Virus record (IMG/VR): IMGVR_UViG_3300045988_069849
Location: 162,273-226,272 of that record
Length of the DNA: 64,000 nt
Reading direction: 5' to 3' (one strand)
Source of the DNA: a virus
This document shows, in pieces, positions 19,379 to 51,055 of the stretch. The translations under genes were made by a program, and so were the position numbers. Position 1 is the first letter of the stretch. Each line of letters starts with the position of its first letter. The notes beneath the pieces are model-generated. The model saw only the letters and a list, made by a program, of their open reading frames with translations. It did no database searches and was not told the DNA's origin.

Positions 19379-19383
19379 GTAAC

Positions 19384-25790: not shown

Positions 25791-25864
25791 GTCCCGTTAG
25801 CTCAGTTGGATAGAGCAACAGCCTTCTAAGCTGTGGGTCGTAGGTTCGAATCCTACACGGGATA
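25791..25864 (+). tRNA. tRNA-Arg (anticodon TCT)
   Basis: gtcccgt-ta-gctc..gagc-a-acagc-cttCTaa-gctgt-gggtc-gtagg-ttcgaat-cctac-acgggat-a. Confidence 0.8.
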
Positions 25865-26104
25865 CTAACAATTAAAAAACAAAACTATGATACTATTTAT
25901 TTATATCTTAGGAGTACTAATGGCATGGTTTCTAATGTATTTAGAAGAGAAATATCGTTATAAGAAGGAAAAGAACTATAAATTTACTTTAGGTAATCTG
26001 TTATCAAGCATATTCTTTTCTTTATTTTCATGGATTGTAGTAGCAGCGTGCCTAATATCCTTGTCGGATAAAATAATCTTAGTAGATAAACCCGACTAAT
26101 TAAT

Positions 26105-26178
26105 GACTCCGTAGCTCAGTTGGTTAGAGCACGATACTTTTAATATCGGGGTCCCGAGTTCGAATCTCGGCGGAGTCA
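26105..26178 (+). tRNA. tRNA-Lys (TTT)
   Basis: Acceptor gactccg/cggagtc; anticodon loop cttttaa; T-arm ccgag-ttcgaat-ctcgg. Confidence 0.8.
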
Positions 26179-26232
26179 CTCTTTTTCTTTTATTCCGCTA
26201 GTAAACATTTGTTGTGAAACACGTGTTTGCAT

Positions 26233-26305
26233 CTGGGTATAGTCGAGTTGGTAAGATGCTACATTTGGGATGTAGAGACCGCAGGTTCGAGTCCTGCTAT
26301 CCAGA
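26233..26305 (+). tRNA. tRNA-Pro (TGG)
   Basis: Anticodon arm ctaca-tttggga-tgtag; T-arm gcagg-ttcgagt-cctgc; acceptor ctgggta/tatccag. Confidence 0.7.
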
Positions 26306-26510
26306 CAAGAAGTAATCAACATTCACTATTAGTACAGCAATTAGGACTGTAGGGTGCCTTTTAGATGAATCCCTGATTACTCCGATTAACAGAGGCAATA
26401 TCCTTAATATCGTTACCACGCACTGCGGCTATTAGCTGTTAGATGATTTGGGGTGCCAAATGGAAGAACGGTGACAGCTATGTTAATTAGAACGAATCTG
26501 TTAATTGTAT

Positions 26511-26593
26511 GGGAGTGCGCCAACGTTGGAGAGTTGGGCTTGACTGTAAATCAAGTGCCTATGGCTTAGAAGGTTCGAATCCTTCCACTCCCA
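26511..26593 (+). tRNA. tRNA-Tyr (GTA), long variable arm
   Basis: Acceptor gggagtg/cactccc; anticodon arm cttga-ctgtaaa-tcaag; T-arm gaagg-ttcgaat-ccttc. Confidence 0.75.
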
Positions 26594-26686
26594 CAAATTT
26601 AATGAATATGTTAATAGGATTTTTAGTATTTATTATTCTAGAAATAGCTATAATAGCTACTATAGGGTTTACTTATTTTCACGAAG

Positions 26687-27058
26687 ATGATAAGAATTTC
26701 AAGAATTATCGCAAAGGAAAGAATAGCTGATTTGTTAGACTTAAATTTCGTGTCTAAGATAGAATTAAGACAGGGAAAACAAGGATTTAATAATCCTGCT
26801 ATTTGTAGAGTAGAAATCTATTTACTACTTGAAAACGACAAAGAGTACTTTAATTCCAAAATGACTGATATTATGTCATGGGCACAAAAGAACAAATGTA
26901 ACATTGCTTTTACTACTGCTAGTATGGCTCTCAAAGACGGATTTATTAAAGAATCTGCTTTTGATGATTTTAACTACCCAGTTCCTAAAAAGTATAAAGC
27001 ATTATGTGATATTTATTCAGCAAGTTACTTTAATCTATTTAATAGGAGAAAATTATGA
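26687..27058 (+). CDS. hypothetical protein (123 aa)
   Basis: ORF track. Confidence 0.5.
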   Translation: MIRISRIIAKERIADLLDLNFVSKIELRQGKQGFNNPAICRVEIYLLLENDKEYFNSKMTDIMSWAQKNKCNIAFTTASMALKDGFIKESAFDDFNYPVPKKYKALCDIYSASYFNLFNRRKL

Positions 27059-27355
27059 AAGAATTAAATAATTATATTCTATATTGTTCTAACTTAGATG
27101 ATAATGAGTATAATCTATTGTGGGAATACTATAATGAACAGTCCTTTCTTAATAAAATTAAAGAAGATTTTAGTTATTTATTTTTTACGTTATTTATATG
27201 GAAGATAAGTACGAAGGATTATCTGACGAAGAGCTTAAAGAGATTTTTGAAGATATGGAAGCAGACTATTGGATAGACTACTATCAGTCTCTTTGCGAAT
27301 GAAACGCAGCAGTTGGCTTTCGGAATCTCTGTCTTAACAAAATGAGTCCGTAATT

Positions 27356-27439
27356 GGGATTGTAACCGGTAATTGGTAGCCGCGCAGACTGTAAATCTGC
27401 TCTCTTTTGAGACTGGAGGTTCGAGTCCTCCCAATCCCA
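27356..27439 (+). tRNA. tRNA-Tyr (GTA) second copy, long variable arm
   Basis: Acceptor gggattg/caatccc; anticodon arm gcaga-ctgtaaa-tctgc (the same arm as classical bacterial tRNA-Tyr); T-arm ggagg-ttcgagt-cctcc. Confidence 0.7.
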
Positions 27440-27443
27440 CACA

Positions 27444-27459
27444 TTTTAATTAATTAGAT
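27444..27459 (+). promoter_or_regulatory. conserved motif TTTTAATTAATTAGAT directly upstream of a start codon (copy 1 of 3)
   Basis: The same 16-mer recurs at 40275-40290 and, nearly identical, at 41720-41735. Each copy is just 3' of a tRNA and just 5' of an ATG. Confidence 0.3.
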
Positions 27460-27460
27460 T

Positions 27461-27655
27461 ATGACAAAAGAAGAAGCAATTAGAGCTATGTCTGAAGGAA
27501 AGAAAGTAAGGCATAGATACTTTAGTAAAGACGAATGGGTGACTATAAATTCCAGCGGACTATATGAGTTCGAAGATGGTGTAAAAGTTGACTCATCGTT
27601 ATTTTGGATGGACAGACAGGATTCCTACTGGAATGATGGATGGAGCTTAGTTTAA
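27461..27655 (+). CDS. hypothetical protein (64 aa)
   Basis: ORF track. Confidence 0.4.
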   Translation: MTKEEAIRAMSEGKKVRHRYFSKDEWVTINSSGLYEFEDGVKVDSSLFWMDRQDSYWNDGWSLV

Positions 27656-27682
27656 CTTTAAATAAGAATAAAATGACAACGT

Positions 27683-27934
27683 ATGAGTACGGAAAAGGAT
27701 ACTTGCCAGAAATCTGGTACTAGTGTAATATTCCAAAAAGAAATTACGCAGTGTAGGGAATGTCCTCATTGTAGAATCGCTCCTGACCCAGACCCTGACG
27801 ACTGGTTCAATGACGATGATGAAAAAGCGCTTTGTAAAGAAGCAGGGAATAAACTAATTGAGGGAATGTTAAGACCTTACGAAAGGGTATTAATTCCGGA
27901 TTGGTGTCCATTAAAAACTAATAAACAAAAATGA
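27683..27934 (+). CDS. Cys-containing small protein
   Basis: ORF track; CRECPHC... Confidence 0.45.
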   Translation: MSTEKDTCQKSGTSVIFQKEITQCRECPHCRIAPDPDPDDWFNDDDEKALCKEAGNKLIEGMLRPYERVLIPDWCPLKTNKQK

Positions 27935-28395
27935 ATAGAATTAAGACAAAAGCCTATCTTGAGGTAACTTTAGAGCAGGCACGCGAATGGTATGAAAGCG
28001 GTAATGAAGACTTGAAGAAATTAGCTCTTACTGCATTTAGTGAGGAAATGCTAATTCCTTCCTTTAAAGAGATAGTAGAGTCTGAAGAAGATTATGGTTT
28101 TTGGAATACATTAGTATGTCCTCCAAGCATGACAGAACAACTCAGTTCTCTAGCTAGTTTACAAATAGTTGCTAACTATCTAAATAAAGGATGGATCAAA
28201 ACAGAAGGTAATACTGGCTATTTTCTTGGAAAAGGTTCTTCTCTATCTGGAAAGACGGAAACTGATATAAAAGGAGTGTACGTCGTCATGCATCAAAACG
28301 TAAAATATCCAGGTATTGTTTATTTTAGAACTGTAGCTGATGCACAGAAAGCGGTAAAGATTCTTGGTAAAAAGTTATTGCCGTTGTTTGAATAA
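27931..28395 (+). CDS. hypothetical protein (154 aa)
   Basis: ORF track. Confidence 0.55.
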   Translation: MNRIKTKAYLEVTLEQAREWYESGNEDLKKLALTAFSEEMLIPSFKEIVESEEDYGFWNTLVCPPSMTEQLSSLASLQIVANYLNKGWIKTEGNTGYFLGKGSSLSGKTETDIKGVYVVMHQNVKYPGIVYFRTVADAQKAVKILGKKLLPLFE

Positions 28396-28405
28396 ATGAT
28401 TAGAT

Positions 28406-28479
28406 GGTGTTATTAGTTCAGTTGGCAGAACGCTACATTGTGGCTGTAGAGGTCAGCGGTTCGAATCCGCTATAACACC
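28406..28479 (+). tRNA. tRNA-His (GTG) with encoded G-1
   Basis: G-1 precedes acceptor gtgttat/ataacac; discriminator C73; anticodon arm ctaca-ttGTGgc-tgtag; T-arm agcgg-ttcgaat-ccgct. Confidence 0.8.
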
Positions 28480-28697
28480 CATAGTATAATTCCCAGAACG
28501 ATCAACAAATTGGCAGATGTACAGTGTTATCTCATAACAAGACATAGTGTAGAGTCTTAGGAAAGTCTGAATAAGTGAAGAATCGGAACTCTTATTAATT
28601 ATATTATGAAAGATAGAAAATTATTTTGGTTTTGGTTTTGTGTAATATCTATAATTTACATAATTACCTATTGGTGTTTTATTAAAAATTACAACGA

Positions 28698-29258
28698 ATG
28701 AAAAAGACAATTGAAATCGAATGTCCTGATGGTTACAAACCAGTTTACAATGCAGAGACTGGAAAAGTAGAAATTGTGTCTGAAGACATTACTGCAAGGG
28801 TACAGACTTACGAAGATGCTTGTAAAATCATGAGTAGAGATGTCTATGGTAATGTTCCTGCAAATTTCTCTGTTGATGCTTTGCGCAAATTGCACGTCAT
28901 TCTCGATGCCTTAAACGAAGGACATAAGTTTAATCTATTAACTGGAACTGTATGGTATCCTTGGGTTCGGTTCTTTAGAATGAAATCAGTACCGAAAGAT
29001 GCAGAGGTCATTGGACACTTCCGTTATCAGGGCGAGAAATTCGCGTTGGTGGGCGGCGGCGCGAATGTTGGCGGCGATGCGGGTCTCGGCTCTTTCTATT
29101 CTGACTATGGCGTCGGCGATGCCTGTTCCATTGTCGGGTTGCTTGCGTGCAAATCTGAGGAGATTGCCAAATATGTATCAACTCAGTTTGGCAAACTCGT
29201 ATTCGAAGCTTGTTTTGCCAGACACTTCAATGTAGGAGAATTTGAATGGCTAGACTAA
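28698..29258 (+). CDS. second DGR target protein (186 aa) carrying VR2 near its C-terminus
   Basis: ORF track. Residues ~115-150 (LVGGGANVGGDAGLGSFYSDYGVGDACSIVGL) are encoded by VR2. They parallel the tail-fibre C-terminus LRVGGGANVGGGAGLGCFNSDGGVGGASSIVGF. Confidence 0.7.
   Translation: MKKTIEIECPDGYKPVYNAETGKVEIVSEDITARVQTYEDACKIMSRDVYGNVPANFSVDALRKLHVILDALNEGHKFNLLTGTVWYPWVRFFRMKSVPKDAEVIGHFRYQGEKFALVGGGANVGGDAGLGSFYSDYGVGDACSIVGLLACKSEEIAKYVSTQFGKLVFEACFARHFNVGEFEWLD
29043..29140 (+). repeat. DGR variable repeat VR2 (remote, opposite strand to TR/RT)
   Basis: Aligned to the TR sense strand there are 27 mismatches, every one at a TR adenine. VR2 also differs from VR1 at many of the same positions. 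Confidence 0.8.
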
Positions 29259-29506
29259 TTGTAATTCTACTATTGCTTGCCTCATGCACACACGATAAGG
29301 TAGTAAATCACAATCAAACTGATACCATAAAGTATGAAGAGATATATTGCCCAAATTGTGATGGAATTGGTCAAGTAAAGATGTCAGCTGGGTCTAGAGT
29401 TGTATTAGGCATCCTTACACTAGGTCCAGGTGCTCTTTGTGATACCGAATCATGTAGTATGTGCAATGGAACAGGAATAGTTAAAAGAAGAGTACTAAAC
29501 AAATGA
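29246..29506 (+). CDS. small lipoprotein-like/Cys-rich protein
   Basis: ORF track; MARLIVILLLLASCTHDK... is a signal peptide with a lipobox-like LASC. Confidence 0.45.
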   Translation: MARLIVILLLLASCTHDKVVNHNQTDTIKYEEIYCPNCDGIGQVKMSAGSRVVLGILTLGPGALCDTESCSMCNGTGIVKRRVLNK

Positions 29507-29982
29507 AGAAATTTTTAATGCTTATTGTGGCTATGCTCTTTATGAGTGTAGCCTCATTCTCTCAAATAACCATATCTCAAGAAGATTATGATAGGTTGCC
29601 TGGAGAGACGAGAACCCAAATCGAGAAAATAACTACCGAGAAGGCTATAAAAGGAGAAATCAAAGAAGTATCTGAATATGCAAGTCTCGGAAAGGAGATT
29701 GGAGTTGCAGTAAATGAGACACTAAAAGCAGTTGAAGATTCGGCTATAAGAATATCTGAATCTAATCTAGGACAAACAGCGATAACTATTGTAGTATGGA
29801 AATTACTATATAAGGAGATAGCTGGAGTCGTAATAGGTATACTACTGCTAGGAATATCTCTATTTTTACTAATAACTGGAAGAGGAAAACTATCTAAAGA
29901 CGATGAAGATGCTGGCGGATGGATAAGTGTAGTCGGTGGCGCAGTATTCTTTATTTCTTCTATGATTTGTGTATTTGGCTGA
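29503..29982 (+). CDS. membrane protein (signal peptide plus C-terminal TM helices)
   Basis: ORF track. Confidence 0.55.
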   Translation: MKKFLMLIVAMLFMSVASFSQITISQEDYDRLPGETRTQIEKITTEKAIKGEIKEVSEYASLGKEIGVAVNETLKAVEDSAIRISESNLGQTAITIVVWKLLYKEIAGVVIGILLLGISLFLLITGRGKLSKDDEDAGGWISVVGGAVFFISSMICVFG

Positions 29983-30078
29983 GGAGCAGTCCAGGCTATA
30001 GGCTGGTGTATTCTAGCTATATTCTGTGTATTATTGCTTCTTGGATGTATGTTAGGCTAACTAATTGGTTAGCCCTTT

Positions 30079-30167
30079 GGAAGGGTGGCAGAGTCAGGTT
30101 TAATGCAACGGTCTTGAAAACCGTCGGGCGGTAAAACGTCCCCAGGGTTCGAATCCCTGTCCTTCCG
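30079..30167 (+). tRNA. tRNA-Ser (TGA), long variable arm
   Basis: Anticodon arm acggt-cttgaaa-accgt; T-arm caggg-ttcgaat-ccctg; acceptor ggaaggg/tccttcc. Confidence 0.7.
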
Positions 30168-30176
30168 CAATTAACT

Positions 30177-30249
30177 ATAGGATTGGTGTTAACGGTTAGC
30201 ACGTCGGTCTCCAAAACCGAAGGTAAGGGTTCGAATCCTTTATCCTATG
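30177..30249 (+). tRNA. tRNA-Trp (CCA)
   Basis: Acceptor ataggat/atcctat; anticodon arm tcggt-ctccaaa-accga; T-arm aaggg-ttcgaat-ccttt. Confidence 0.75.
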
Positions 30250-30272
30250 CAAATATCAATAACTAAAAACTT

Positions 30273-30491
30273 ATGAAGAGAATTAGATTAATTTGTATGA
30301 TGGCTGTTGTAGCAATAGTTACGGCAGTCTGTTGTTCGTTTACTTCTAGGGAAGACCGAAATCATTTTTCGGTTATAAAGGTATATACCGACCCTAATAG
30401 TCACATGAATGTCTATAGAGTCTCCGTTCCTGGGAGAGTGTATTACGTACTTCATAATACGACTCAAGGAGGGTTATGTAAATTACAATGA
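30273..30491 (+). CDS. small secreted/membrane protein
   Basis: ORF track. Confidence 0.4.
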   Translation: MKRIRLICMMAVVAIVTAVCCSFTSREDRNHFSVIKVYTDPNSHMNVYRVSVPGRVYYVLHNTTQGGLCKLQ

Positions 30492-31015
30492 GCGAAACTT
30501 ATTATCTCTTAGCAGCCATTTCGTATGGCATTTTTATTGTTCAGTTCATACTCTCTTGGTTTGGTGGCGACACTGACTTAGATGTAGATTTAGATGGAGA
30601 ATTGGACATGGATGTGAGTGATATTGTCTCTTTTAAAGGACTAGTACATTTTGTAATGGGAGCAAGTGGATGGCTTTGTATTAAGCATTCCGTTTCTCAT
30701 TCTATAGAATGGTACGATTATTTAATCGCATTAATATGCGGTATTCTTTTTGTGGTTATACTTTACTACTTATATAAACTTTGTTTAAAACTCCAACATC
30801 AAGTTATTCCTGAAAAGGGTGAAGCCTTAGTTGGGAGAATTGGAACAATCACTATCCCTAATGATATTTCTGGTGGTAGTTCTGTTATCTTAGTTGAGAT
30901 AAATGGAATGCTTCAAGAATTGTCAGCTTATGCTGAAGAAGAGCATAAGACGTATAAAAACGGGGACAAAGTGAGAATTTCAAAATTTGAGAATGGAAAG
31001 TATTATTTTAACTAA
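30488..31015 (+). CDS. NfeD-like membrane protein (partner of SPFH proteins)
   Basis: N-terminal TM helices plus a C-terminal OB-like region GEALVGRIGTITIPN...GDKVRISKFENGKYYF. Lies directly upstream of, and translationally coupled to, the SPFH gene. Confidence 0.55.
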   Translation: MSETYYLLAAISYGIFIVQFILSWFGGDTDLDVDLDGELDMDVSDIVSFKGLVHFVMGASGWLCIKHSVSHSIEWYDYLIALICGILFVVILYYLYKLCLKLQHQVIPEKGEALVGRIGTITIPNDISGGSSVILVEINGMLQELSAYAEEEHKTYKNGDKVRISKFENGKYYFN

Positions 31016-31030
31016 AAAGAATTTTTAAAG

Positions 31031-41364: not shown

Positions 41365-41437
41365 GGGCCGTTAGCTCAAATGGCTAGAGCGCTGGTTTTG
41401 CACACCGGAAGATAGGGTTCGAGTCCCTGCGTGTCCA
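41365..41437 (+). tRNA. tRNA-Ala-like (TGC) with G3-U70 but an imperfect acceptor stem (possible pseudo-tRNA)
   Basis: D-arm gctc-aaatggcta-gagc; anticodon arm ctggt-ttTGCac-accgg; T-arm taggg-ttcgagt-ccctg. Acceptor gggccgt vs cgtgtcc pairs only at positions 1-4. Confidence 0.45.
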
Positions 41438-41455
41438 CAACAAAATTAAATAATT

Positions 41456-41641: not shown

Positions 41642-41644
41642 TAT

Positions 41645-41717
41645 CGCGGGGTGTTAGCAGAGGTAGCTAGTCAGGCTCATAACCTGAAGGTCGAGGGTTC
41701 GAGTCCCTCTCCCGCTA
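41645..41717 (+). tRNA. tRNA with CAT anticodon (fourth CAT copy)
   Basis: D-arm tagc-agaggta-gcta; anticodon arm tcagg-ctCATaa-cctga; T-arm gaggg-ttcgagt-ccctc. Exact acceptor pairing is ambiguous. Confidence 0.55.
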
Positions 41718-41719
41718 CT

Positions 41720-41735
41720 AGTAATTAATTAGATA
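41720..41735 (+). promoter_or_regulatory. conserved motif GTAATTAATTAGATAC (copy 3, one mismatch)
   Basis: Follows a tRNA and precedes ATG 41751. Confidence 0.25.
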
Positions 41736-41750
41736 CTTAATTTTTAGATT

Positions 41751-43050: not shown

Positions 43051-43282
43051 GGCCTCTGATATAATCCAACTTAAAGACCTAAAGGATGGGGAATTTGCAG
43101 AAGTAATAGAATGGTTTGAGGATGGAACAGTATCTAACGGAGATATAATTCAAAGATGTGGACTTGCACTATTTATATTAGGAAGTTGTTCTTACTATCC
43201 TGAGATATTTAGTAAGGGTGCTAGAGACTATACTAATACTAAGTTACGAACACTACCTGAGGGTACAACTATAATGTTATAA
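43031..43282 (+). CDS. hypothetical protein (83 aa)
   Basis: ORF track. Confidence 0.45.
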   Translation: MAKVVNRASDIIQLKDLKDGEFAEVIEWFEDGTVSNGDIIQRCGLALFILGSCSYYPEIFSKGARDYTNTKLRTLPEGTTIML

Positions 43283-43322
43283 TTTCTTTTTCCAGTTTTC
43301 TAATTAAAGATAAACTGGGTAT

Positions 43323-43884
43323 GGGCCTACTTGGATTTGACAGGCGATTACAAATTATAAGGACGTGTAGAGCGCAATCTCTTTAAACGAAGAAAAAACA
43401 ATAAATGCTACTTATAGCGAAGTAAGAATGGCAGCCTAAGCTGCTGGCTTGTTGGTAGACACTATTAACTAAGTCGGGTTACGGGAGAGACCTAGAAACA
43501 GAAGAGGTTGAGTATATTGATATAATGGAGAGCTAGGCTCTAATCCTAGTAATATACTCTTAATCAGAACACTCTAAGAGTTAGTAAGACTGAATCTCCT
43601 ACGTCATAAAACAGATGGAAGATGTGTTCCATGAGATGTGACGAATCTCTAAAGTATCATCCCGTTCTCCAACGTAAATGGAGTGGTGGAACGTTGACTT
43701 CGGTCAGCCCTATAGTTTGGTAGCTTGTAGATAAGCATCTAGAGAAATACTTAGTATGGACTCTTGTAAGACTTATAAAACTACCTAAATGCTAGAACTC
43801 CCTAGCTGATGTAATAAAAATGAGACGCACGTTATCCTTGTAACGAGGGTTGTTTGGACACGGGTTCGACTCCCGTTAGGTCCA
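43323..43884 (+). ncRNA. ssrA: candidate phage-encoded tmRNA (ssrA-like), ~560 nt
   Basis: 5' end gggccta ttggatttgacaggcg resembles the tmRNA 5' consensus (acceptor + GGAUUCGACGGG). 3' end ggac-acggg-ttcgact-cccgt-taggtcc-A forms a T-arm plus acceptor 3' strand. The 7-bp acceptor gggccta/taggtcc has G3-U70, the tRNA-Ala identity element. An internal tag-like ORF starts at GCA: AISLNEEKTINATYSEVRMAA followed by TAA. There is no protein-coding ORF across ~560 nt. Confidence 0.5.
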
Positions 43885-43887
43885 CAT

Positions 43888-43932
43888 AATAGGGCTATAG
43901 CTCAACTGGTTAGAGCACCACATCAATAATAT
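43888..43932 (+). pseudogene. truncated tRNA 5' fragment (acceptor + D-arm only) fused upstream of tRNA-Ile
   Basis: gggctat-a-gctc-aactggtta-gagc-a then a degenerate anticodon arm and no T-arm. Confidence 0.35.
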
Positions 43933-44004
43933 TGGGATGTAGTTTAACGGTTAGAACAAGAAACTGATAATTTCTAGACGGCAGTTCAACTCTGTCCTTC
44001 CCAA
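43933..44004 (+). tRNA. tRNA-Ile (GAT)
   Basis: Acceptor tgggatg/cttccca (one mismatch); D-arm gttt..gaac; anticodon arm agaaa-ctGATaa-tttct; T-arm ggcag-ttcaact-ctgtc. Confidence 0.65.
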
Positions 44005-44021
44005 CTAATACTGTAAATAAT

Positions 44022-44570: not shown

Positions 44571-44682
44571 TGTGGAGGTTATCAGTTCAAGTCTGATTAG
44601 CCCTACAAAACCGCCAGCTCACGCGGTATATAAGAAAGGATTGCCGGACTCGCAGGTGTAACGAGATAAATACCTGCATTTT

Positions 44683-44755
44683 CGAGGCTGTGGTGTAATG
44701 GCTTGCATATCACACTGTCACTGTGAAGGTTGGGGTTCGAATCCCCCAGTCTCGG
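44683..44755 (+). tRNA. tRNA-Asp (GTC)
   Basis: Acceptor cgaggct/agtctcg; anticodon arm tcaca-ctGTCac-tgtga; T-arm tgggg-ttcgaat-ccccc. Confidence 0.6.
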
Positions 44756-44762
44756 CATTTAT

Positions 44763-44835
44763 TCCCCTGTAGTTTAGTTGGTTAGAACACGTGATTTGTA
44801 ATCTCGAGACCTCGGTTCGAATCCGAGTGGGGGAT
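44763..44835 (+). tRNA. tRNA-Thr (TGT)
   Basis: Acceptor tcccctg/tggggga (two wobble pairs); D-arm gttt..gaac; anticodon loop ttTGTaa; T-arm ctcgg-ttcgaat-ccgag. Confidence 0.65.
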
Positions 44836-44862
44836 CTTAACCATTAAATCAGATTAATTTTT

Positions 44863-45537
44863 ATGACTAGATTAGAAAAGTATTTAGTAGCAACTGCTAC
44901 TGAGATTATCGAAGCGGAAACAACTGTTTCTCGCTACTTTGTCATTGGAAACGTCAAAGTTAGAGTATCAGACCATTTAAGTAAAATGAGTGATGCAGAC
45001 TTACAAGTAATTATCCCATTGAACGGAGGGACTAAGTATATAGTTACTGTTAAGGATAGTCCTGGAAAATTTCTTGTATGGAATGCAACTCAAATAAAAG
45101 ACTTTATTCCTTCATTGCAGATTATTAAGGGCTTGAAGGAAGGAGTGCAACTTAAGCCAAAACCTAAAGACTCTGCAGTTCAGAAGATTCAGCTAGCATT
45201 AAATAATAGTAATACCGATGGAGGTTCGTTAACGTTTGATGGTACTATTATTGAGTCTAGATTGAAAGAAAAGCAACTTACTTCCAAACAGCGGGAAGTT
45301 TTCAGGAGAACTAAATCTACTTGGGATATTTCTCAGATTGGAACATTACCCAGTATGATTAAAGTAGATTTGGGATTGTCAAATGGTTCTGTAAACGAAG
45401 ATGTGCAGATATTTCTAACTTGTACATCTTTAACCTACAAAGAAATTCTGAACATTTATAAAATAATAGTTGTTGATAACCGTATGGTTCCAACTATTAA
45501 ACTGTTGCAAGAAGCTTATAGCTTGATTGTGCAGTAG
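44863..45537 (+). CDS. hypothetical protein (224 aa)
   Basis: ORF track. Confidence 0.6.
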   Translation: MTRLEKYLVATATEIIEAETTVSRYFVIGNVKVRVSDHLSKMSDADLQVIIPLNGGTKYIVTVKDSPGKFLVWNATQIKDFIPSLQIIKGLKEGVQLKPKPKDSAVQKIQLALNNSNTDGGSLTFDGTIIESRLKEKQLTSKQREVFRRTKSTWDISQIGTLPSMIKVDLGLSNGSVNEDVQIFLTCTSLTYKEILNIYKIIVVDNRMVPTIKLLQEAYSLIVQ

Positions 45538-45540
45538 GAT

Positions 45541-45612
45541 AGCGCCATCATCTAATGGTTAGGATTTAGGCTTTTCACGCCTGCCATACGGGTTCGAATC
45601 CCGTTGGCGTTA
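45541..45612 (+). tRNA. tRNA-Glu (TTC)
   Basis: Acceptor agcgcca/tggcgtt; D-arm atct-aatggtta-ggat; anticodon arm taggc-ttTTCac-gcctg; T-arm acggg-ttcgaat-cccgt. Confidence 0.7.
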
Positions 45613-45669
45613 CTATGTACCCCAGCAGCGAAAGTTGTTGGGGTATTTTTTGTTTAATATAATTAATAA

Positions 45670-45990
45670 TTGATGAGAAAAACATTTGAGTTTGTAAAGG
45701 TTGGAGGAGTCTGGTTCTATTGGTGGCCAGATTATGACGGAACACCAGAGGAACTAGCAATGGTTGGTGGTGCAGATGAACTTCTTGATTCTCTAGATAA
45801 TAAGTTTGTTAGATTGCAGATGGTTGACCCAGCTGCAGCTAAGATAACGTTGTCTAAAATTGAGGAGGATGAATGTGGAGCAACTTACTTATGCAAAAGT
45901 AAGAATTACAATGACAGGGTATGGATTTGTGCTGTAACTCTATCAGTATTCGGGGAATATCCTCAAAATATTTACCTAAAAGATATGTAA
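45670..45990 (+). CDS. hypothetical protein (106 aa)
   Basis: ORF track. Confidence 0.5.
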   Translation: MMRKTFEFVKVGGVWFYWWPDYDGTPEELAMVGGADELLDSLDNKFVRLQMVDPAAAKITLSKIEEDECGATYLCKSKNYNDRVWICAVTLSVFGEYPQNIYLKDM

Positions 45991-45993
45991 AAA

Positions 45994-46419
45994 ATGAAAA
46001 CGTTAAATGAGATTTTAGACAATTACAAAGACTATGCCGTAGTTCTCGATGACCGTTTCGGTTCTAGATTAGCAAAGTTTTTAACAGAAGAGCAGTTAGA
46101 AAAAATAGGCTTCAAGTACGATGGTGATGAGCCTTATCCAGAGCCTAAGGAATGGACTAGAGAGAATATCCTAGAGCAACTTAAGTCTGACGTGGAGTTT
46201 GGTTTTGAGAAGGCTCTAGACCAGAGAGGCATTTCAGCTAGCCTAATGTTCTACGTGGTACTAAGGTGGAATCAAGTTCTAGAAGAGGGCTTAGAGAATT
46301 ATCCTGAAGAGAATTATGCTATGTATGGGTTGCCTTTGTTTAAGGCTACTGCTGTAAAGTATGGATGGGAGAATCCTATAGGCGACGATAATGGGGACGA
46401 AGAGTTCTACAATGAATAG
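45994..46419 (+). CDS. hypothetical protein (141 aa)
   Basis: ORF track. Confidence 0.55.
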   Translation: MKTLNEILDNYKDYAVVLDDRFGSRLAKFLTEEQLEKIGFKYDGDEPYPEPKEWTRENILEQLKSDVEFGFEKALDQRGISASLMFYVVLRWNQVLEEGLENYPEENYAMYGLPLFKATAVKYGWENPIGDDNGDEEFYNE

Positions 46420-46607
46420 CGCTATGAAGGAATCTTCTATACTTAAAGCAATTTCTGACGCTATTGAAGAATACGAGGAAAATCAACAAAGACGAATAGA
46501 CCTGTTAGAGAGTAAAATTCTGCTATTTGAGAGAGAAAGGGAGGCTTTTATTCGGCATTTGAGAGAAGGAAACATTCAATTATTAAAGGATTATCTAGGA
46601 ATTAAAG

Positions 46608-46931
46608 ATGAGTAAGTACTATTTAATTAAGGAATGTAATAATATTCCTTTTATCTTAGGACAGTTCGATAGTATTGAAGAGGCTGAGGCCGCTCTTCCT
46701 TCTACAAATAAGAAGGGAGCTAAGCACTTTGTCGTTTGTTCTACAGAGCAATTAAAGTCAGCAAGGGCGGCTATATCCTACTTACAAGAAGAACTTAGAA
46801 AGAGTCGAGAGGAGGTACGGCAATGGAGGGATTTAGAACTTAAAACAAGGCTAGATTTCTCAAACCAAATCTGTGAATTATCGAAGATAGCTAATCTAAC
46901 TGTAGAGGACCTAACTAAAGTATTGTTATGA
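46608..46931 (+). CDS. hypothetical protein (107 aa)
   Basis: ORF track. Confidence 0.5.
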   Translation: MSKYYLIKECNNIPFILGQFDSIEEAEAALPSTNKKGAKHFVVCSTEQLKSARAAISYLQEELRKSREEVRQWRDLELKTRLDFSNQICELSKIANLTVEDLTKVLL

Positions 46932-47230
46932 TAGTAAGTTCTCCTTTTGATAAAGATTTGCTTGGACATGAGATAAGGGGTGTAAATACATCTTACTACG
47001 GACTTTCTGCATTGCAGGCTGTAATAAATCATGACGGAATCCGTCAAGATATTGCAAAATATATGTATAGAGACTGCATTGTAGATGGAGGACGAAAAGG
47101 AGTAATCATAGGATTTGAGGATAATAATCAATTCTTTGATTACTACTATATAGTCTATGTGCCAGAGCTAAATACTACTGTATATCAATTAGCTAATGAT
47201 GCGAGATTTATTAATTCAATTGAGATATGA
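46928..47230 (+). CDS. hypothetical protein (100 aa)
   Basis: ORF track. Confidence 0.5.
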   Translation: MIVSSPFDKDLLGHEIRGVNTSYYGLSALQAVINHDGIRQDIAKYMYRDCIVDGGRKGVIIGFEDNNQFFDYYYIVYVPELNTTVYQLANDARFINSIEI

Positions 47231-47384
47231 AAGTATATTATATTTCAATTCCCACGGCATATGACGGGCAAGTCCCTATAAACTATGAGAAGATCTCTCC
47301 TCTTTTTCTAGAGAAGAAAGACGCTATAGAATGGGCGGTAACTCAAAATTACTGGGATATTAGATTAATAGAAGAAGAAGTTTT

Positions 47385-47879
47385 ATGAAAAAGAAAGTTT
47401 TAATTATCCTTATGATTAGTATTGTATTCGGATTTGCAACTGGTTATTCTTTGCATCATCTGATACATTTCAATCAGAAACAGGAGGAAATGGTATTGCT
47501 GCCAGAGCATCCATTCTACTTATTGGATGAAGTAAACGAAGAAGTATTGTACAATACTTTGAAGCATTACGATTTTCCAAATCCAGCAATTATAACAGCT
47601 CAGGCTGTTCTGGAATCTGGCAATTTTAAATCGAAACTTTGTAAGGACAATAACAATCTGTTCGGATTGTATAATTCCAGAACAATGTCTTACTTCAAGT
47701 TCGATAGTTGGATAAGCTGCGTGTTCGCTTATAAGCAATTTATCCTTAGTAAGTATAACCCAGAAGAGGATTATTACAAATTCCTAGACAGAATTGGCTA
47801 CGCTGAGGATTCCTTGTATGAAAGTAAAGTTAAGGAATTGGAATTAGATATACTTAATAAATATGGAAGCTCAAATTGA
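47385..47879 (+). CDS. peptidoglycan hydrolase, glucosaminidase (FlgJ-like) domain with an N-terminal TM anchor
   Basis: AIITAQAVLESGNFKSKLCKDNNNLFGL matches the mannosyl-glycoprotein endo-beta-N-acetylglucosaminidase signature. Confidence 0.6.
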   Translation: MKKKVLIILMISIVFGFATGYSLHHLIHFNQKQEEMVLLPEHPFYLLDEVNEEVLYNTLKHYDFPNPAIITAQAVLESGNFKSKLCKDNNNLFGLYNSRTMSYFKFDSWISCVFAYKQFILSKYNPEEDYYKFLDRIGYAEDSLYESKVKELELDILNKYGSSN

Positions 47880-48129
47880 AGAAGCTATCAAATTTAGAAA
47901 GAAAGCTAATTTCAAGATATTAACTAGATTAAGTCAAATCATTGACCAATATCCTTATCTAAGATTTCACCAAATTCTTATTATATATAAGATTAGTGAG
48001 CTGGGAGTGGATAAGTTCAATGAGGAGAGTGTAGAAACTTTGAAGAAGCTAGAGCATGAAATGGTGGAAAAAGGAATTAGTAAGATTACTAGTAATAGTT
48101 CTGATGGGAACAATACTATTAGTAACTAG
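47863..48129 (+). CDS. hypothetical protein (88 aa)
   Basis: ORF track. Confidence 0.45.
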   Translation: MEAQIEEAIKFRKKANFKILTRLSQIIDQYPYLRFHQILIIYKISELGVDKFNEESVETLKKLEHEMVEKGISKITSNSSDGNNTISN

Positions 48130-48210
48130 GGAAGTAACGGGTTTTGAGACCGCAGTTATGACTGGTCTAACTATTATATTATGCAATCAAATATTTAACG
48201 AATAAAGATT

Positions 48211-50226
48211 ATGAATTTTAAAGATTTCAAGAAAGATGTAGAGTCTGCTTTCAATGCTATGATTGCAGATAATTTATTTGTAGTTAATGTAGACAAAGAC
48301 CTTTTGTGGATGAGTTATCTTCTCTCCTTTGAGGACGAAACAATTCGGCAAGATCACAATTGTAATGCTTGTAAGTCTTTCATACGTCACTATGGTAAGG
48401 TAGTCGCTATAGACCCTCAAACCTACAAGGTGAAAACCTTCTGGGATGATGTTCACACTCCTGGCTATGAAAAGACCGCATCTGATTTAGCTAAGCTCGT
48501 TAAGGAAGCTGGAATAGGAGATATATTCATTCAGGATGTTAATGAGTTTCACGGTTGTGACCATAATGTGCAACTTCTTCCTGATGGAACTACTAGAACT
48601 TGGACTCACTTGTACGTGACTATTCCTAACAAGTTTAAATTCAACAAGAGAGTACATCATTTCGATTCTGCCGCAGGTTATCGCGGAGATGTTAGAGCTA
48701 GAGCTGGTGTCTTTGAACGCTCTCTTTCCGAGCTTAAACTAAGTGCGGTAGAAACCGTAATTGAGTTGATAGAGGATAATAATCTCTATCGCGGAGAAGA
48801 GTTCCTAAAGACTCTGCAAGAGTTCAGAAGAACTATGCTTGAGGCCGATAATCTCTCACCAGAGGTTCGCACTAACTATTGTTGGTTTAACTTCAAATCT
48901 CCAATAGCTAAAATTAGAAATACGGCTATGGGAACTCTACTGATTGACTTAAGTAATGGTGTAGACCTGGAAAGAGCTGTTAAGTCTTATGAGAACATTA
49001 TGGCTCCATCTAACTATAAGAGACCTACTGCTCTTATTACTAAGAAACAAATTGAGGCTGCTCAGAAGAAGGTTGAAGAACTTGGGTTAACTGATGCCCT
49101 TCCTCGCCGTCATGCTCGTGTAGAAGATATTTCTGTAAACGACGTTCTGTTCGTAAATAGAGACACTCGTGCACGTATGAAAGGAGGTATATTTGACTCT
49201 TTAAAAGAGACCTCAACGGTTAATCCTAAAGAGTATACCAAAGCTACTGAAATTTCAATTTCGGAGTTTGTAACTAATGTATTGCCACACTCTAAGGATG
49301 TGCAAATTCTTGTTGAGAATAAGCATATTCCTAATTTTGTTACCCTAACTGCTCCAGAGAACCCTGATGCAGGTCAGCTGTTCAAATGGAAGAATAACTT
49401 CGCTTGGGTGTATAATGGCTCTATGGCGGATTCATTCAAGGAGAAAGTAAAAGCAGCAGGTGGTAACGTAAATGGATTCCTAAGATGTTCTCTACACTGG
49501 TTTAACTATGATGACCTTGACCTCCATGTAACAGAACCTGGTGGTAATGAAATCTATTACGGGCATAAGAGAGGATTAACTGGTGGTACACTAGATGTAG
49601 ATATGAACGCTGGTTCTGGTAAAACCAGAGATGCAGTCGAGAATATTATCTGGACTGACCAATCTAAACTCAGAGCAGGTCGATATGAAGTGCGTGTGCA
49701 TAACTTCTGCAAAAGAGAACATATAGACTTTGGATTCGAGGTAGAAATCGAAATCAATGGAGAACTTCATAAGTTCAACTATGATAAGATGGTGTCAGAC
49801 AGAGAATATATTGCGGTAGCAATTATCAAGGTAGATTCTATTGGTAATATAACCCTAAGTCCGGTAATTGCCGAAGGTGCAACTTCATACAAGTCTATGA
49901 ACGAGTGGGGCATTGATACTATGCGTTTCCAAACTGTTTCTTGCATCATGTATTCTCCAAATTATTGGGAAGGTAATGAAATAGGAAACAAGCACCTATT
50001 CTTCATGATTGATGGATGTAAAAATCCTGACCCAGTTCGAGGATTCTTCAATGAATATTTGAGACCCGATCTCGAAAAAGATCATAAGAGAGTATTCGAA
50101 GCTATTGGCTCTAGAGCTAAAGCAGAATACAACGATAACCAGTTGAGTGGACTAGGATTCTCTAGTACGTCTCACGACGAGGTTGTAGTTAAAGTTGATA
50201 ATAAACCATTTAAAATTAAATTCTAA
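48211..50226 (+). CDS. large hypothetical protein (671 aa)
   Basis: ORF track; no motif recognised by eye. Confidence 0.65.
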   Translation: MNFKDFKKDVESAFNAMIADNLFVVNVDKDLLWMSYLLSFEDETIRQDHNCNACKSFIRHYGKVVAIDPQTYKVKTFWDDVHTPGYEKTASDLAKLVKEAGIGDIFIQDVNEFHGCDHNVQLLPDGTTRTWTHLYVTIPNKFKFNKRVHHFDSAAGYRGDVRARAGVFERSLSELKLSAVETVIELIEDNNLYRGEEFLKTLQEFRRTMLEADNLSPEVRTNYCWFNFKSPIAKIRNTAMGTLLIDLSNGVDLERAVKSYENIMAPSNYKRPTALITKKQIEAAQKKVEELGLTDALPRRHARVEDISVNDVLFVNRDTRARMKGGIFDSLKETSTVNPKEYTKATEISISEFVTNVLPHSKDVQILVENKHIPNFVTLTAPENPDAGQLFKWKNNFAWVYNGSMADSFKEKVKAAGGNVNGFLRCSLHWFNYDDLDLHVTEPGGNEIYYGHKRGLTGGTLDVDMNAGSGKTRDAVENIIWTDQSKLRAGRYEVRVHNFCKREHIDFGFEVEIEINGELHKFNYDKMVSDREYIAVAIIKVDSIGNITLSPVIAEGATSYKSMNEWGIDTMRFQTVSCIMYSPNYWEGNEIGNKHLFFMIDGCKNPDPVRGFFNEYLRPDLEKDHKRVFEAIGSRAKAEYNDNQLSGLGFSSTSHDEVVVKVDNKPFKIKF

Positions 50227-50228
50227 TT

Positions 50229-50603
50229 ATGTACAAACAAGCGTCTAAAATGAAGTTGCGCTTTGCAACTAGTAAAGGTAATTTGAGTGTGGAAGATTTG
50301 TGGGACTTAAGTCTGCCTGCATTGGACAGACTGGCAGTGTCCTATGACGAAGAATTAGCCAAGAGTCCTAGAAAATCTTTCATAACTAATGATACTCCTA
50401 GCAATAGCGAACTGGAGTTAAAGTTCAACATTGTGAAAGATGTTATCACTGATAAGCTGAAAGACAAGGCCGCTAGAGAAGCAGCTAAAGATAAGGCAGC
50501 TGAGAAGGCACGCCTGACTGAACTGCTGGCTAAGAAACAGTCTGAGAAAATGGAAAGTATGTCCGAAGATGAAATCAGACAACGACTTGCAGAACTCGGA
50601 TAA
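50229..50603 (+). CDS. hypothetical protein (124 aa), K/E-rich C-terminus
   Basis: ORF track. Confidence 0.5.
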   Translation: MYKQASKMKLRFATSKGNLSVEDLWDLSLPALDRLAVSYDEELAKSPRKSFITNDTPSNSELELKFNIVKDVITDKLKDKAAREAAKDKAAEKARLTELLAKKQSEKMESMSEDEIRQRLAELG

Positions 50604-50883
50604 TTGTGTCGTATTGAAAACAGTTAGTCCACAAATCTTAGATAAACTAAGGGAAAGTGGATTGACTGTTTGTACGTGTTGTGAATTTCCTGGTACAGCC
50701 TGGTTAGTATTCAGACCAAATATGCCTACATCGGATATTCACGGTGAGGGGTATGATTTCGAAGAGATAGGACTTTTTGGAACAGAGGCTGTTCTCAAAT
50801 ACTTCGAAGCTAACACTCCGAATTATGTAGATTGCGGAACTGATGTCGATAAATTTATTAACATTTGTTTGCAGTTTAAATAA
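50569..50883 (+). CDS. hypothetical protein (104 aa)
   Basis: ORF track. Confidence 0.45.
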   Translation: MKSDNDLQNSDNCVVLKTVSPQILDKLRESGLTVCTCCEFPGTAWLVFRPNMPTSDIHGEGYDFEEIGLFGTEAVLKYFEANTPNYVDCGTDVDKFINICLQFK

Positions 50884-50969
50884 GTTAACGGTTTTTAACT
50901 TTGAATTTAACACTTGTACTGTTATTATAGTAAGTTGATTAGCGGTACGTGAGTATAGCTAATTACTAT

Positions 50970-51055
50970 GCCCGAATGGTGGAATTGGTAGACACGTCAG
51001 ATTTAAGCTCTGATGCCCAGTAATGGGCGTGTGGGTTCGAGTCCCACTTCGGGTA
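50970..51055 (+). tRNA. tRNA-Leu (TAA), long variable arm
   Basis: Anticodon arm tcaga-ttTAAgc-tctga; T-arm gtggg-ttcgagt-cccac; acceptor gcccgaa/ttcgggt. Confidence 0.7.

Follow-up and report, generated by a model that had tools for sequence, protein, structure and literature searches.

We analyzed a 64,000-nt stretch of viral DNA (positions 162,273–226,272 of the IMG/VR record IMGVR_UViG_3300045988_069849) that carries a 25.3-kb island of tRNA genes. This whole stretch is referred to as the window and all coordinates are window-based. The DNA comes from an uncultivated tailed phage of the human gut with a genome of ~190 kb. The island is composed of 28 tRNA-shaped genes, one tmRNA gene and one tRNA remnant, all on the plus strand and interspersed with ~30 small standard-code open reading frames (ORFs).

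Inventory of the tRNA island

tRNA genes were called on the whole window with ARAGORN and with the Rfam tRNA model (RF00005; gathering score of 29 bits). ARAGORN predicted 29 tRNA genes: 27 on the plus strand between positions 25791 and 51056 and two with a CUA anticodon. The Rfam model recovered 26 of these 27 island genes at the gathering threshold and all 27 with relaxed filters (38.5–71.5 bits), the missing one, tRNA-Ser(GCT) at 33050, being lost solely to Rfam's speed filters. RF00005 places 28 genes above its gathering score, including an alanine-like gene that ARAGORN did not call. Per-gene Rfam E-values range from 1e-13 to 1e-4 and synteny is maintained in 28 independent related contigs; chance resemblance is therefore excluded.

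A sequence-only reading of this DNA had described by eye an array of ~30 tRNA genes with duplicated and atypical members. Its core picture was right: the 27 genes that it listed were all recovered by ARAGORN and Rfam together, with identical anticodons, and the two CTA suppressors that it placed outside the array were found at c19306–19378 and 21667–21738. That reading overlooked the tRNA-shaped gene at 39354–39436, the tmRNA at 43323–43887 and the link between the array and the recoding of TAG in the late genes. Judged from their sequences, about 23 to 25 of the 28 tRNA-shaped genes look like intact decoders, which would cover 18 amino acids plus the initiator. The island contains:

25791–25865, plus strand: tRNA-Arg(TCT) (ARAGORN 122.4; Rfam 71.5 bits)
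26105–26179, plus strand: tRNA-Lys(TTT) (ARAGORN 121.8; Rfam 70.8 bits)
26233–26306, plus strand: tRNA-Pro(TGG) (ARAGORN 118.0; Rfam 66.4 bits)
26511–26594, plus strand: tRNA-Tyr(GTA) copy 1, class II, 84 nt (ARAGORN 109.3; Rfam 41.2 bits)
27356–27440, plus strand: tRNA-Tyr(GTA) copy 2, class II, 85 nt (ARAGORN 109.2; Rfam 47.4 bits)
28406–28480, plus strand: tRNA-His(GTG) (ARAGORN 121.8; Rfam 65.5 bits)
30079–30168, plus strand: tRNA-Ser(TGA) (ARAGORN 122.9; Rfam 52.7 bits)
30177–30250, plus strand: tRNA-Trp(CCA) (ARAGORN 114.7; Rfam 60.4 bits)
33050–33138, plus strand: tRNA-Ser(GCT) (ARAGORN 124.4; Rfam 50.4 bits with relaxed filters)
34064–34141, plus strand: tRNA-Phe(GAA) (ARAGORN 120.9; Rfam 67.2 bits)
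34205–34277, plus strand: tRNA-Gln(TTG) (ARAGORN 120.9; Rfam 66.3 bits)
34990–35065, plus strand: CAT tRNA, elongator type (ARAGORN and Rfam)
35127–35200, plus strand: CAT tRNA, partly initiator-like (ARAGORN 115.0; Rfam 55.1 bits)
36100–36182, plus strand: tRNA-Leu(TAG) (ARAGORN 119.8; Rfam 60.5 bits)
37811–37885, plus strand: tRNA-Cys(GCA) copy 1, U73 (ARAGORN 114.4; Rfam 59.1 bits)
39198–39273, plus strand: tRNA-Gly(TCC) (ARAGORN 109.4; Rfam 55.1 bits)
39278–39350, plus strand: tRNA-Gly(GCC) (ARAGORN 119.6; Rfam 67.7 bits)
39354–39436, plus strand: tRNA-shaped gene with an enlarged anticodon loop (Rfam 52.9 bits)
39522–39597, plus strand: tRNA-Cys(GCA) copy 2, 76 nt (ARAGORN 111.1; Rfam 52.9 bits)
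39734–39814, plus strand: CAT tRNA, initiator-like, T arm disrupted (ARAGORN 109.5; Rfam 38.5 bits)
40056–40142, plus strand: tRNA-Asn(GTT), 87 nt (ARAGORN 120.1; Rfam 55.9 bits)
41365–41437, plus strand: tRNA-Ala(TGC)-like gene (Rfam 39.5 bits; no ARAGORN call)
41645–41718, plus strand: initiator-type tRNA(CAT) (ARAGORN 108.5; Rfam 41.4 bits)
43323–43887, plus strand: tmRNA, 565 nt (Rfam RF00023, 62.1 bits)
43891–43932, plus strand: 5' remnant of tRNA-Ile(GAT) (comparison with relatives)
43933–44005, plus strand: tRNA-Ile(GAT) (ARAGORN 108.7; Rfam 64.2 bits)
44683–44756, plus strand: tRNA-Asp(GTC) (ARAGORN 114.6; Rfam 54.7 bits)
44763–44836, plus strand: tRNA-Thr(TGT) (ARAGORN 116.2; Rfam 60.5 bits)
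45541–45613, plus strand: tRNA-Glu(TTC) (ARAGORN 110.4; Rfam 55.6 bits)
50970–51056, plus strand: tRNA-Leu(TAA) (ARAGORN 119.2; Rfam 56.9 bits)

The two tRNA-Tyr(GTA) copies are 73% identical, and tRNA-His(GTG) encodes the G−1 that had been read by eye (position 28406, opposite C73). The 3' ends of these genes are strikingly uniform. All 31 tRNA and tmRNA genes of the window encode C74 and none encodes CCA, the bases following C74 being mostly TA or AA. The same C74 was found in 542 of the 554 tRNA genes (98%) of the related contigs (L001–L028), where position −1 is occupied by a T in 77% of cases. These signals point to processing by RNase P and to an obligatory completion by a CCA-adding enzyme.

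Probable recoding of TAG to glutamine in the late genes

The window is divided into divergent gene blocks: the sign of the GC skew and the coding strand both flip at ~20 kb. In the minus-strand block, which runs from 14.6 kb to the start of the window, the standard code yields only fragments and the genes are open only with TAG as a sense codon. ORFs of at least 150 codons on 1–20 kb amount to 1299 aa under the standard code and to 6002 aa with TAG as sense. The features involved are:

39–14628, minus strand: late/structural block with TAG as sense (reverse transcriptase of a diversity-generating retroelement, tail protein, portal, large terminase and others)
19306–19378, minus strand: suppressor tRNA(CUA) no. 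1 (ARAGORN 124.9; Rfam 66.3 bits)
21467–21638, plus strand: RAGATH-14 RNA (Rfam 184.6 bits, relative to a gathering score of 149.1)
21667–21738, plus strand: suppressor tRNA(CUA) no. 2 (ARAGORN 116.8; Rfam 56.5 bits)

The proteins of the minus block match PHROG families of phage reverse transcriptases (2e-89), tail proteins (2e-82), large terminases (TerL; 6e-60) and portals (9e-42). Each late gene contains 4–28 in-frame TAG codons, with 20 in the TerL gene and 28 in the portal gene, both of which are full-length PHROG matches. TAG reaches a frequency of 25 per 1000 codons in the late genes and was never found in frame in the called genes of the plus block.

We aligned TerL with 13 homologues (72–97% identity) and observed that 10 of its 20 in-frame TAG codons face an invariant glutamine. 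The sequences of the homologous proteins had already been derived with an alternative code (under table 11, the gene of the related locus L029 does not yield its protein), and we therefore compared codons directly with those of a homologue of 72% identity, which makes the result independent of the translation table. The most common partners of TAG in this comparison were CAA and CAG (7 of the 22 sites where TAG faces another codon), the remainder being scattered over variable positions. The assignment of TAG to glutamine in the late genes is thus well supported by these sequence comparisons. As a side observation, one TerL homologue (P0003; 1131 aa) contains an intein and LAGLIDADG domains.

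Both suppressor tRNAs sit at the junction of the divergent blocks, outside the tRNA array. With 78% identity, suppressor 1 and the tRNA-Gln(TTG) of the island (34205) are more alike than any other two tRNAs of the set, and the sequence of suppressor 1 marks it as a clear derivative of tRNA-Gln. ARAGORN labels both CUA tRNAs as tRNA-Pyl, a label that names the anticodon only and that we rejected. For suppressor 1, the label is contradicted by its G18G19, its TTCGAAT T-loop, its 2-nt 8–9 linker and its alignment to tRNA-Gln. Suppressor 2 has an atypical D-loop that lacks GG. The RAGATH-14 RNA ends 28 nt upstream of suppressor 2 on the same strand, and this tandem was also found in L172, L173 and L175; RAGATH-14 could be a leader that controls or times the release of suppressor 2. 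The relatives L029 and L030 (TerL of 72% identity) have only the Gln-like suppressor within reach. The CUA suppressors would turn TAG from a stop into a glutamine codon and would thereby render the TAG-rich structural block translatable.

We consider it highly probable that the window contains the tRNA/tmRNA island of a ~190-kb gut phage in which TAG encodes glutamine in the late genes.

The four CAT tRNAs

Four island genes have a CAT anticodon, and the sequence-only reading had raised the question of which one carries the determinants of lysidine modification. In E. coli, the determinants of TilS are C4:G69 and C5:G68, and these may differ in the host of this phage. Both pairs were found in the gene at 34990, whose 1:72 pairing is of the elongator type (GGACCUA paired with UAGGUCC), and both are kept in all its alleles among the relatives. 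Its T-loop is of the TTCAA type, as in both phage Ile(GAT) genes, and it gives an antisense match to the Rfam family Plastid-ycf2, which presumably overlaps plastid trnI-CAU. The codon ATA is used 20–31 times per 1000 codons in this phage. Based on these sequence features, the gene at 34990 is quite likely a tRNA-Ile2 that would read ATA once modified with lysidine.

The three other CAT genes (35127, 39734 and 41645) all possess A11:U24, a defining feature of bacterial initiator tRNAs. The gene at 41645, with its C1×U72 mismatch, its CGCGGGG acceptor strand and its intact arms, has the sequence of an intact initiator type. A mismatch at 1:72 is also present in 39734 and is missing from 35127, which has a U1:A72 pair and G33. 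Three G:C pairs in the lower part of the anticodon stem are complete in 35127 (GGG/CCC), and two of them are found in 39734 and in 41645. The gene at 35127 was detected only in the window, L007 and L013. No clear elongator tRNA-Met was identified among the tRNAs of the island.

The gene at 39734 combines the initiator-like C1×A72 mismatch with the disrupted T arm that had been read by eye. The 5' strand of its T stem is interrupted and only two T-stem pairs are left, the minimum free energy (MFE) fold has no T arm, and the gene ends at 39814. Its sequence suggests that it is probably a decaying paralogue.

A phage tmRNA with a large expansion

The tmRNA gene matches RF00023 over the full model (positions 1–374; 62.1 bits relative to a gathering score of 47). 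Its acceptor strand GGGCCUA is paired with UAGGUCC and followed by A73, and it contains the G3·U70 pair typical of tRNA-Ala. The T arm is canonical (CGGGUUCGACUCCCG). The tag frame reads GCT ACT TAT AGC GAA GTA AGA ATG GCA GCC TAA and encodes the peptide ATYSEVRMAA. In L012, the same peptide is encoded with a synonymous change (GCC to GCG) and a different stop codon (TAA to TGA), and a second tag allele, AEIAPVRMAA, is present among the relatives.

Relative to the Rfam consensus, the tmRNA contains an expansion of 273 nt located between the pseudoknot regions (window 43440–43800), and its length varies from 497 to 574 nt among the relatives. ARAGORN made no tmRNA call in the window, presumably because of this expansion. 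Pfam and PHROG scans of ~60 window ORFs, which did not include every small one, did not reveal the partner protein SmpB; the SmpB of the host may serve the phage tmRNA.

Conservation and turnover across relatives

We retrieved the relatives of this phage using the AAA ATPase gene located in the center of the island. This yielded 28 IMG/VR contigs of 45–193 kb, several of them of 186–193 kb. In INPHARED, only three unannotated human-faecal fragments matched, and a profile search for distant relatives recovered only L048 (56% identity), which is devoid of tRNAs. The order of the tRNA genes is the same in the 28 contigs and individual slots differ.

The slot of tRNA-Asn is occupied by the 87-nt gene (hereafter Asn87) in the window and eight loci, and by an unrelated 73-nt tRNA-Asn(GTT) in 18 loci. 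Homology between the two versions breaks ~25 nt upstream of the tRNA and resumes ~0.8 kb later; therefore, Asn87 arrived as a cassette of ~0.8 kb together with an ORF of 121 codons. The second Cys slot contains either a gene of 75–76 nt or, in 13 loci, an allele of 86–87 nt with a long variable arm (hereafter Cys86). Of the Phe genes of the window and its relatives, 22 out of 26 present the 78-nt form and four are ordinary alleles of 74–76 nt. At the 39734 slot, the form with a disrupted T arm is common and L025 carries an intact initiator of 77 nt.

Deletions between neighboring tRNA genes were also observed. A truncated tRNA 5' half had been noticed by eye after the tmRNA; the truncation is real, but the fragment starts at 43891 rather than 43888 and corresponds to the 5' part of a tRNA-Ile(GAT), truncated within its anticodon loop and directly adjoining the following Ile gene. 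A complete Ile(GAT) gene of 75 nt is found directly after the tmRNA in at least nine relatives (L001, L003, L004, L009, L011, L012, L018, L019 and L026), and the remnant is shortened further, to 19 nt, in ten other loci. In L021, the tmRNA has been lost by a deletion that runs from the T arm of the Ala-like gene to the similar T arm of the tmRNA; the product (13984–14080) is a chimeric tRNA-Ala(TGC) accepted by ARAGORN.

Turnover by cassettes and by deletions between neighboring tRNA genes explains the duplicates, the remnant and several of the atypical members; the duplicates and most of the atypical members are products of cassette exchange and deletion. Two relatives carry free-standing, Seg-like GIY-YIG endonuclease genes: L002 has one (13247–13759; Pfam 47.5 bits) beside Cys86, in an interrupted copy, and L025 has one just downstream of the tmRNA. 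These genes are likely the drivers of the slot exchange. A simple motif search of the window itself did not reveal any GIY-YIG gene.

One near-complete relative (L127; contig DXLM01000001.1 of 186,052 bp) combines the 87-nt allele of Asn with the 86-nt allele of Cys. It is listed as contig 1 of a metagenome-assembled genome (MAG) of 'Bacteroides sp.' (HRGM_Genome_0403), which is our only hint about the host and represents either a weak hint or a binning artefact. The presence of this relative under a Bacteroides name would fit a bacterial tRNA island or an assembly chimera, an explanation that we dismiss as next to impossible given the phage hallmark genes on the same contig, the uniform GC-content of the window (30–41% along its length), the synteny in at least 28 independent viral contigs and a TAG recoding that is incompatible with a standard-code bacterial chromosome.

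Atypical tRNA genes: alternative alleles and probably decaying copies

Several members of the island depart from canonical tRNA architecture. The gene at 39354–39436 lies 3 nt after tRNA-Gly(GCC); its acceptor, D and T arms are all intact, and its anticodon stem has 5 bp. Its anticodon loop is enlarged to 15 nt (17 nt in Rfam's register, as a 17-nt insertion) and contains no credible anticodon. ARAGORN forces it into a Tyr(ata) or into an Asn(att) with a 10-nt intron. We rejected this intron, because it requires C33 and A34, the resulting anticodon varies (ATT vs. ATC) and the 'intron' itself varies from 6 to 12 nt. Eight sequence variants of this gene exist in the family, with loops of 13, 14, 15 or 19 nt that are variable in sequence and share no 7-nt loop; only a CAT-Y-R recurs at the 3' end of the loop. 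The nucleotides of the tertiary interactions are intact (G18G19, T54–C56 and G15:C48). We read this gene as encoding a putative tRNA-derived RNA that no longer decodes, with either another role or the status of a well-preserved relic.

Asn87 (40056) has a D stem of 3 bp, G73 and the variable region of ~16 nt that had been noted by eye (exactly 16 nt, in a gene of 87 nt), which gives it a class-II-like architecture. In the ARAGORN drawing, this region has a stem of 3 bp and a loop of 8 nt; in the MFE fold, it is unpaired. In Cys86, the variable arm forms a clean hairpin of 5 bp (AAAGA-GAAA-UCUUU), with U73. Both tRNAs have an acceptor stem of 7 bp and a T stem of 5 bp (7/5), and their anticodons (GTT in Asn87 and GCA in Cys86) are not those of the class II tRNAs for Leu, Ser, Tyr or Sec. 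We found no parent of Asn87: in IMG/VR, its pattern of D arm and variable arm is confined to this phage family. In GTDB, the 17-nt word of its D arm occurs at 120 loci or more; among the 120 loci returned, only L127 has it in a predicted tRNA and the other 119 matches lie outside tRNAs. A word AGAAAT is common to the variable regions of Asn87, Cys86, the 81-nt Met and a Leu allele, and we rejected it as a sign of common origin since it is too short and AT-rich.

The tRNA-Phe(GAA) at 34064 has the 9-nt variable loop that had been reported, as confirmed in the ARAGORN call. The Ala-like gene at 41365 indeed retains G3·U70 in a broken acceptor stem: G1-C72, G2-C71, G3·U70 and C4-G69 are formed, 5:68, 6:67 and 7:66 are mismatched, and position 73 is A. 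The predictors are divided on this gene, since ARAGORN rejects it but Rfam accepts exactly 41365–41437 at 39.5 bits.

An alternative explanation is that the atypical members (39354, 39734, 35127, 41365 and perhaps Asn87) are functionless pseudogenes of a decaying island. The broken T stem of 39734 and the broken acceptor stem of 41365 favor this explanation, as do the outright Ile remnant, the intact alternatives found at the same slots in some genomes and the variants of 39354 in L006 and L009, in which a 7-nt deletion removes the 5' strand of the T stem and destroys it. However, variation in 39354 is concentrated in its loop and flanks, and its body hardly changes: across variants, the acceptor and D stems are invariant, the T arm is nearly so, 21 of the 21 cloverleaf pairs are standard and the anticodon stem shows one compensatory change (A-U to G-C). 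The Ala-like gene is 100% identical in 23 relatives. Moreover, the changes between the three variants of Asn87 (G·U, G-C and U-A) preserve the pairing of the anticodon stem, and Asn87 is the sole tRNA-Asn in the ~20 kb of island fetched from the genomes that carry it. We judge general decay to be only slightly less than an even bet. The atypical members are probably mixed, with alternative alleles (Asn87 and the 78-nt Phe) alongside decaying copies (39734, 41365 and the Ile remnant).

A different possibility is that Asn87, Cys86 and 39354 are functional specialists rather than products of drift, which we hold to be distinctly improbable. As such, they could be nuclease-resistant tRNAs or decoys for host nucleases that target tRNAs. 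Alternatively, the tRNAs with a variable arm could be charged by SerRS and create a deliberate Asn/Cys-to-Ser ambiguity; G73 and U73 discriminators are regarded as SerRS-compatible (PMC5389517). The universal C74 ends without CCA would, on the specialist reading, mark a dedicated maturation route.

Genome context and neighboring genes

The GC-content of the window is 36% overall. The cumulative GC skew reaches its minimum at 18–20 kb, and the region ~16000–22000 also holds both suppressor tRNAs; this minimum may be a replication origin or a point of transcription divergence. Downstream, the plus block (20–64 kb) contains, besides the tRNA genes, genes for an AAA ATPase, an SPFH protein, a glucosaminidase, an RNase H, a nicotinamide phosphoribosyltransferase and a phosphoribosyl pyrophosphate (PRPP) synthetase, as well as many ORFs without matches. 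At 57606–60358 (plus strand), a single small ORF separates the genes for nicotinamide phosphoribosyltransferase (PHROG match of 1e-182) and for ribose-phosphate pyrophosphokinase (2e-51), and this pair looks like a putative NAD-salvage module. Promoters of the Bacteroides type (TTTG-N17-21-TAnnTTTG) were not enriched, with one match for 2.0 expected.

At the start of the window, positions 39–3457 (minus strand) hold the diversity-generating retroelement, with its reverse transcriptase gene at 39–1346, a template repeat at 1455–1552 and a variable repeat at 1656–1753, inside the 3' end of the tail-protein gene (1631–3457). The two repeats are 74% identical, and the mismatches checked lie at T on the plus strand (A on the coding strand). 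The reverse transcriptase and tail-protein genes each contain in-frame TAG.

Two ORFs adjoin tRNA genes of the island. Directly upstream of the first tRNA, an ORF of 319 aa (24779–25738, plus strand) matches an uncharacterised PHROG (3e-107) and gives a weak N-terminal match to radical-SAM proteins (22.4 bits, below the cut-off). Directly after the tRNA at 35127–35200, an ORF of 136 aa (35221–35631, plus strand) matches the Pfam family tRNA_lig_CPD (30.8 bits, for a cut-off of 23) and contains two HxTx motifs (HCTL and HITI). It has no sequence match in the Protein Data Bank (PDB) and no PHROG, and its single-sequence AlphaFold model (pLDDT of 34) is unusable. From its motifs, this ORF looks like a 2H phosphoesterase. 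The predicted enzyme might repair the ends of cleaved tRNAs or break down cyclic-nucleotide signals.

Codon usage and the role of the island

The anticodons of the island follow a simple pattern: position 34 is U for all family boxes and for all two-codon boxes ending in a purine, and G for the boxes ending in a pyrimidine. Such a set is wobble-minimal, as is any near-complete minimal set. The GC-content at third codon positions (GC3) of the phage is 0.26–0.32, and 78% of its codons have a cognate or wobble phage tRNA; coverage would be ~90% with U34 reading the NNU codons of family boxes as well. The sequence-only reading had described an enrichment in readers of A/U-ending codons and attributed it to a GC-richer host. 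The enrichment fits the codon usage of the phage but, the set being wobble-minimal, compensation for such a host is not demonstrated. Gene content is in fact out of step with demand: Val (~58–64 codons per 1000) has no tRNA, Cys (12–18 per 1000) has two and there are three genes of the initiator type.

We infer that the island genes would be transcribed with the standard-code (early or middle) block, excised by host RNase P and 3' nucleases, and completed by the host CCA-adding enzyme, which is needed because only C74 is encoded. Host synthetases would then charge the phage tRNAs, presumably with isoleucine for 34990 as tRNA-Ile2 and with asparagine for Asn87. As an outcome, the phage would decode its AT-rich codons with a matching wobble-minimal set of its own, whatever the state of the host tRNA pool, and the tmRNA would add ribosome rescue. 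Over time, slots of the island are swapped as cassettes and eroded by deletions between adjacent tRNA genes.

Several observations weigh against this interpretation of the island and of the recoding. No synthetase, release factor, SmpB or CCA-adding/tRNA-processing enzyme was found among ~60 window ORFs searched with Pfam and/or PHROGs. The window contains no tRNA for Val or for Arg-CGN and its Ala gene is damaged; the missing tRNAs may be encoded in other parts of the genome. Four or more members (35127, 39354, 39734 and 41365) may not function in decoding, and suppressor 2 is only a candidate for carrying glutamine. Finally, the relatives are close, so that support from covariation is thin; for 39354, it amounts to a single compensatory pair, and a score as high as the observed one was obtained in 67 of 500 shuffles.

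The content of the island could also be set purely by a codon mismatch, the phage supplying tRNAs for A/U-ending codons that a GC-richer host decodes poorly. Bacteroides genomes have a GC-content of ~43%, and the related contig in the 'Bacteroides sp.' MAG is in line with this view. So are the 36% GC-content of the window, the low GC3, the U34 tRNA serving each family box and the dedicated tRNAs for ATA (20–31 per 1000), AGA (24), TTA (23–29) and GGA (25–32). Yet the set is near-complete and not selective, Val has no tRNA despite the frequent use of GTA (29 per 1000) and GTT (20–22 per 1000), and the rarest residue, Cys, has two tRNAs alongside the triplicated initiator type. We therefore regard codon compensation as rather unlikely to be the whole explanation.

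Equally doubtful in our view is that the island serves as an insurance, replacing host tRNAs degraded or cleaved by defence nucleases, with its odd members as escapers or decoys. A near-complete set is what replacement, as opposed to supplementation, needs, unrelated alternative alleles are kept at one slot and the 2H-phosphoesterase-like ORF lies inside the island; furthermore, evasion of anticodon nucleases and of retron effectors by phage tRNAs has been shown in published work (PMC10264068; PMC11555353). However, the intact members have canonical anticodon loops, decay could equally account for the odd ones, and no RNA ligase or kinase was found among the scanned window ORFs (~60; Pfam and/or PHROGs) as a partner of the predicted phosphoesterase.

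Relation to known systems and significance

The phage island, with its recoded late genes, belongs to known kinds: the tRNA clusters of large phages, the code-15 phages and the phage tmRNAs. Only Asn87, the Cys86 allele and 39354 might appear unusual to a tRNA specialist.

In T4, the tRNA cluster contains the endonuclease gene segB and the stable species 1 and 2 RNAs. Similarly, relatives of the present phage have homing endonucleases (GIY-YIG) inside the cluster, and the island embeds stable non-tRNA RNAs in the form of 39354 and the tmRNA. As in T4, T5, KVP40 and the clusters of 'huge' phages (PMC7162821), many co-oriented tRNA genes are set among small ORFs, and CCA is incompletely encoded, such that addition by the host is needed. 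The genome and host are different, however, and DNA similarity is limited to single tRNAs. The universality of the 3' ends with C74 only and the coupling of the island to a stop-codon reassignment are further differences.

Gut phages that use code 15, with suppressor tRNAs and standard-code early genes, have been described (bioRxiv 10.1101/2021.08.26.457843; PMC9523058). Like these phages (crAss-like, Lak, Jade, Sapphire and Agate; see also PMC10607447), the present one is AT-rich, confines in-frame TAG to structural/late genes while its early block follows the standard code, and has CUA suppressor tRNAs, one of which is related to tRNA-Gln. The size of its relatives (186–193 kb) is within the range of the ~200-kb clades. 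In contrast to these phages, it possesses two different suppressors, with RAGATH-14 directly upstream of one of them, and neither release factor nor synthetase was seen among the scanned window ORFs.

Large phages with many tRNAs and with a tmRNA have also been described (PMC7162821), and a tmRNA is annotated in a Stenotrophomonas phage record. Like known phage tmRNAs, the tmRNA of the window is full-length and in one piece, with an acceptor of alanine identity and a short tag ending in AA. It differs from them by its 565 nt with the 273-nt expansion, by the lack of a detected SmpB nearby, and by its location inside a tRNA array, where it recombines with the neighboring Ala-like gene (L021).

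Asn87 and, in the relatives, Cys86 resemble bacterial allo-tRNAs and selC* tRNA-Cys (PMC5389517) and eukaryotic nev-tRNAs (cited in the same paper) in that a long variable region is combined with an anticodon other than those of Leu, Ser or Tyr. However, their geometry is 7/5 and not 8/4 or 9/3, and their D arm is not Sec-like; in addition, the variable arm of Asn87 is weakly paired, and its gene is carried by a phage and alternates with a canonical allele. Relative to the phage tRNAs involved in counter-defence (PMC10264068; PMC11555353), the large complement of the island could likewise replace cleaved host tRNAs, but its intact members lack the anticodon-loop substitutions described for those tRNAs.

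These results are of value for annotation, since they define a ~190-kb phage family that encodes two amber suppressors and a tmRNA besides its near-complete set of decoding tRNAs, and whose late genes need code 15: the standard code shatters the terminase, portal and tail genes. They also provide a clean natural example of the turnover of tRNA genes in a phage population, including cassettes, remnants and a fusion of a tRNA with a tmRNA. If Asn87, Cys86 and 39354 proved to be functional, they would be phage additions to the short list of non-canonical tRNA architectures and would bear on how phages cope with host defences directed against tRNAs.

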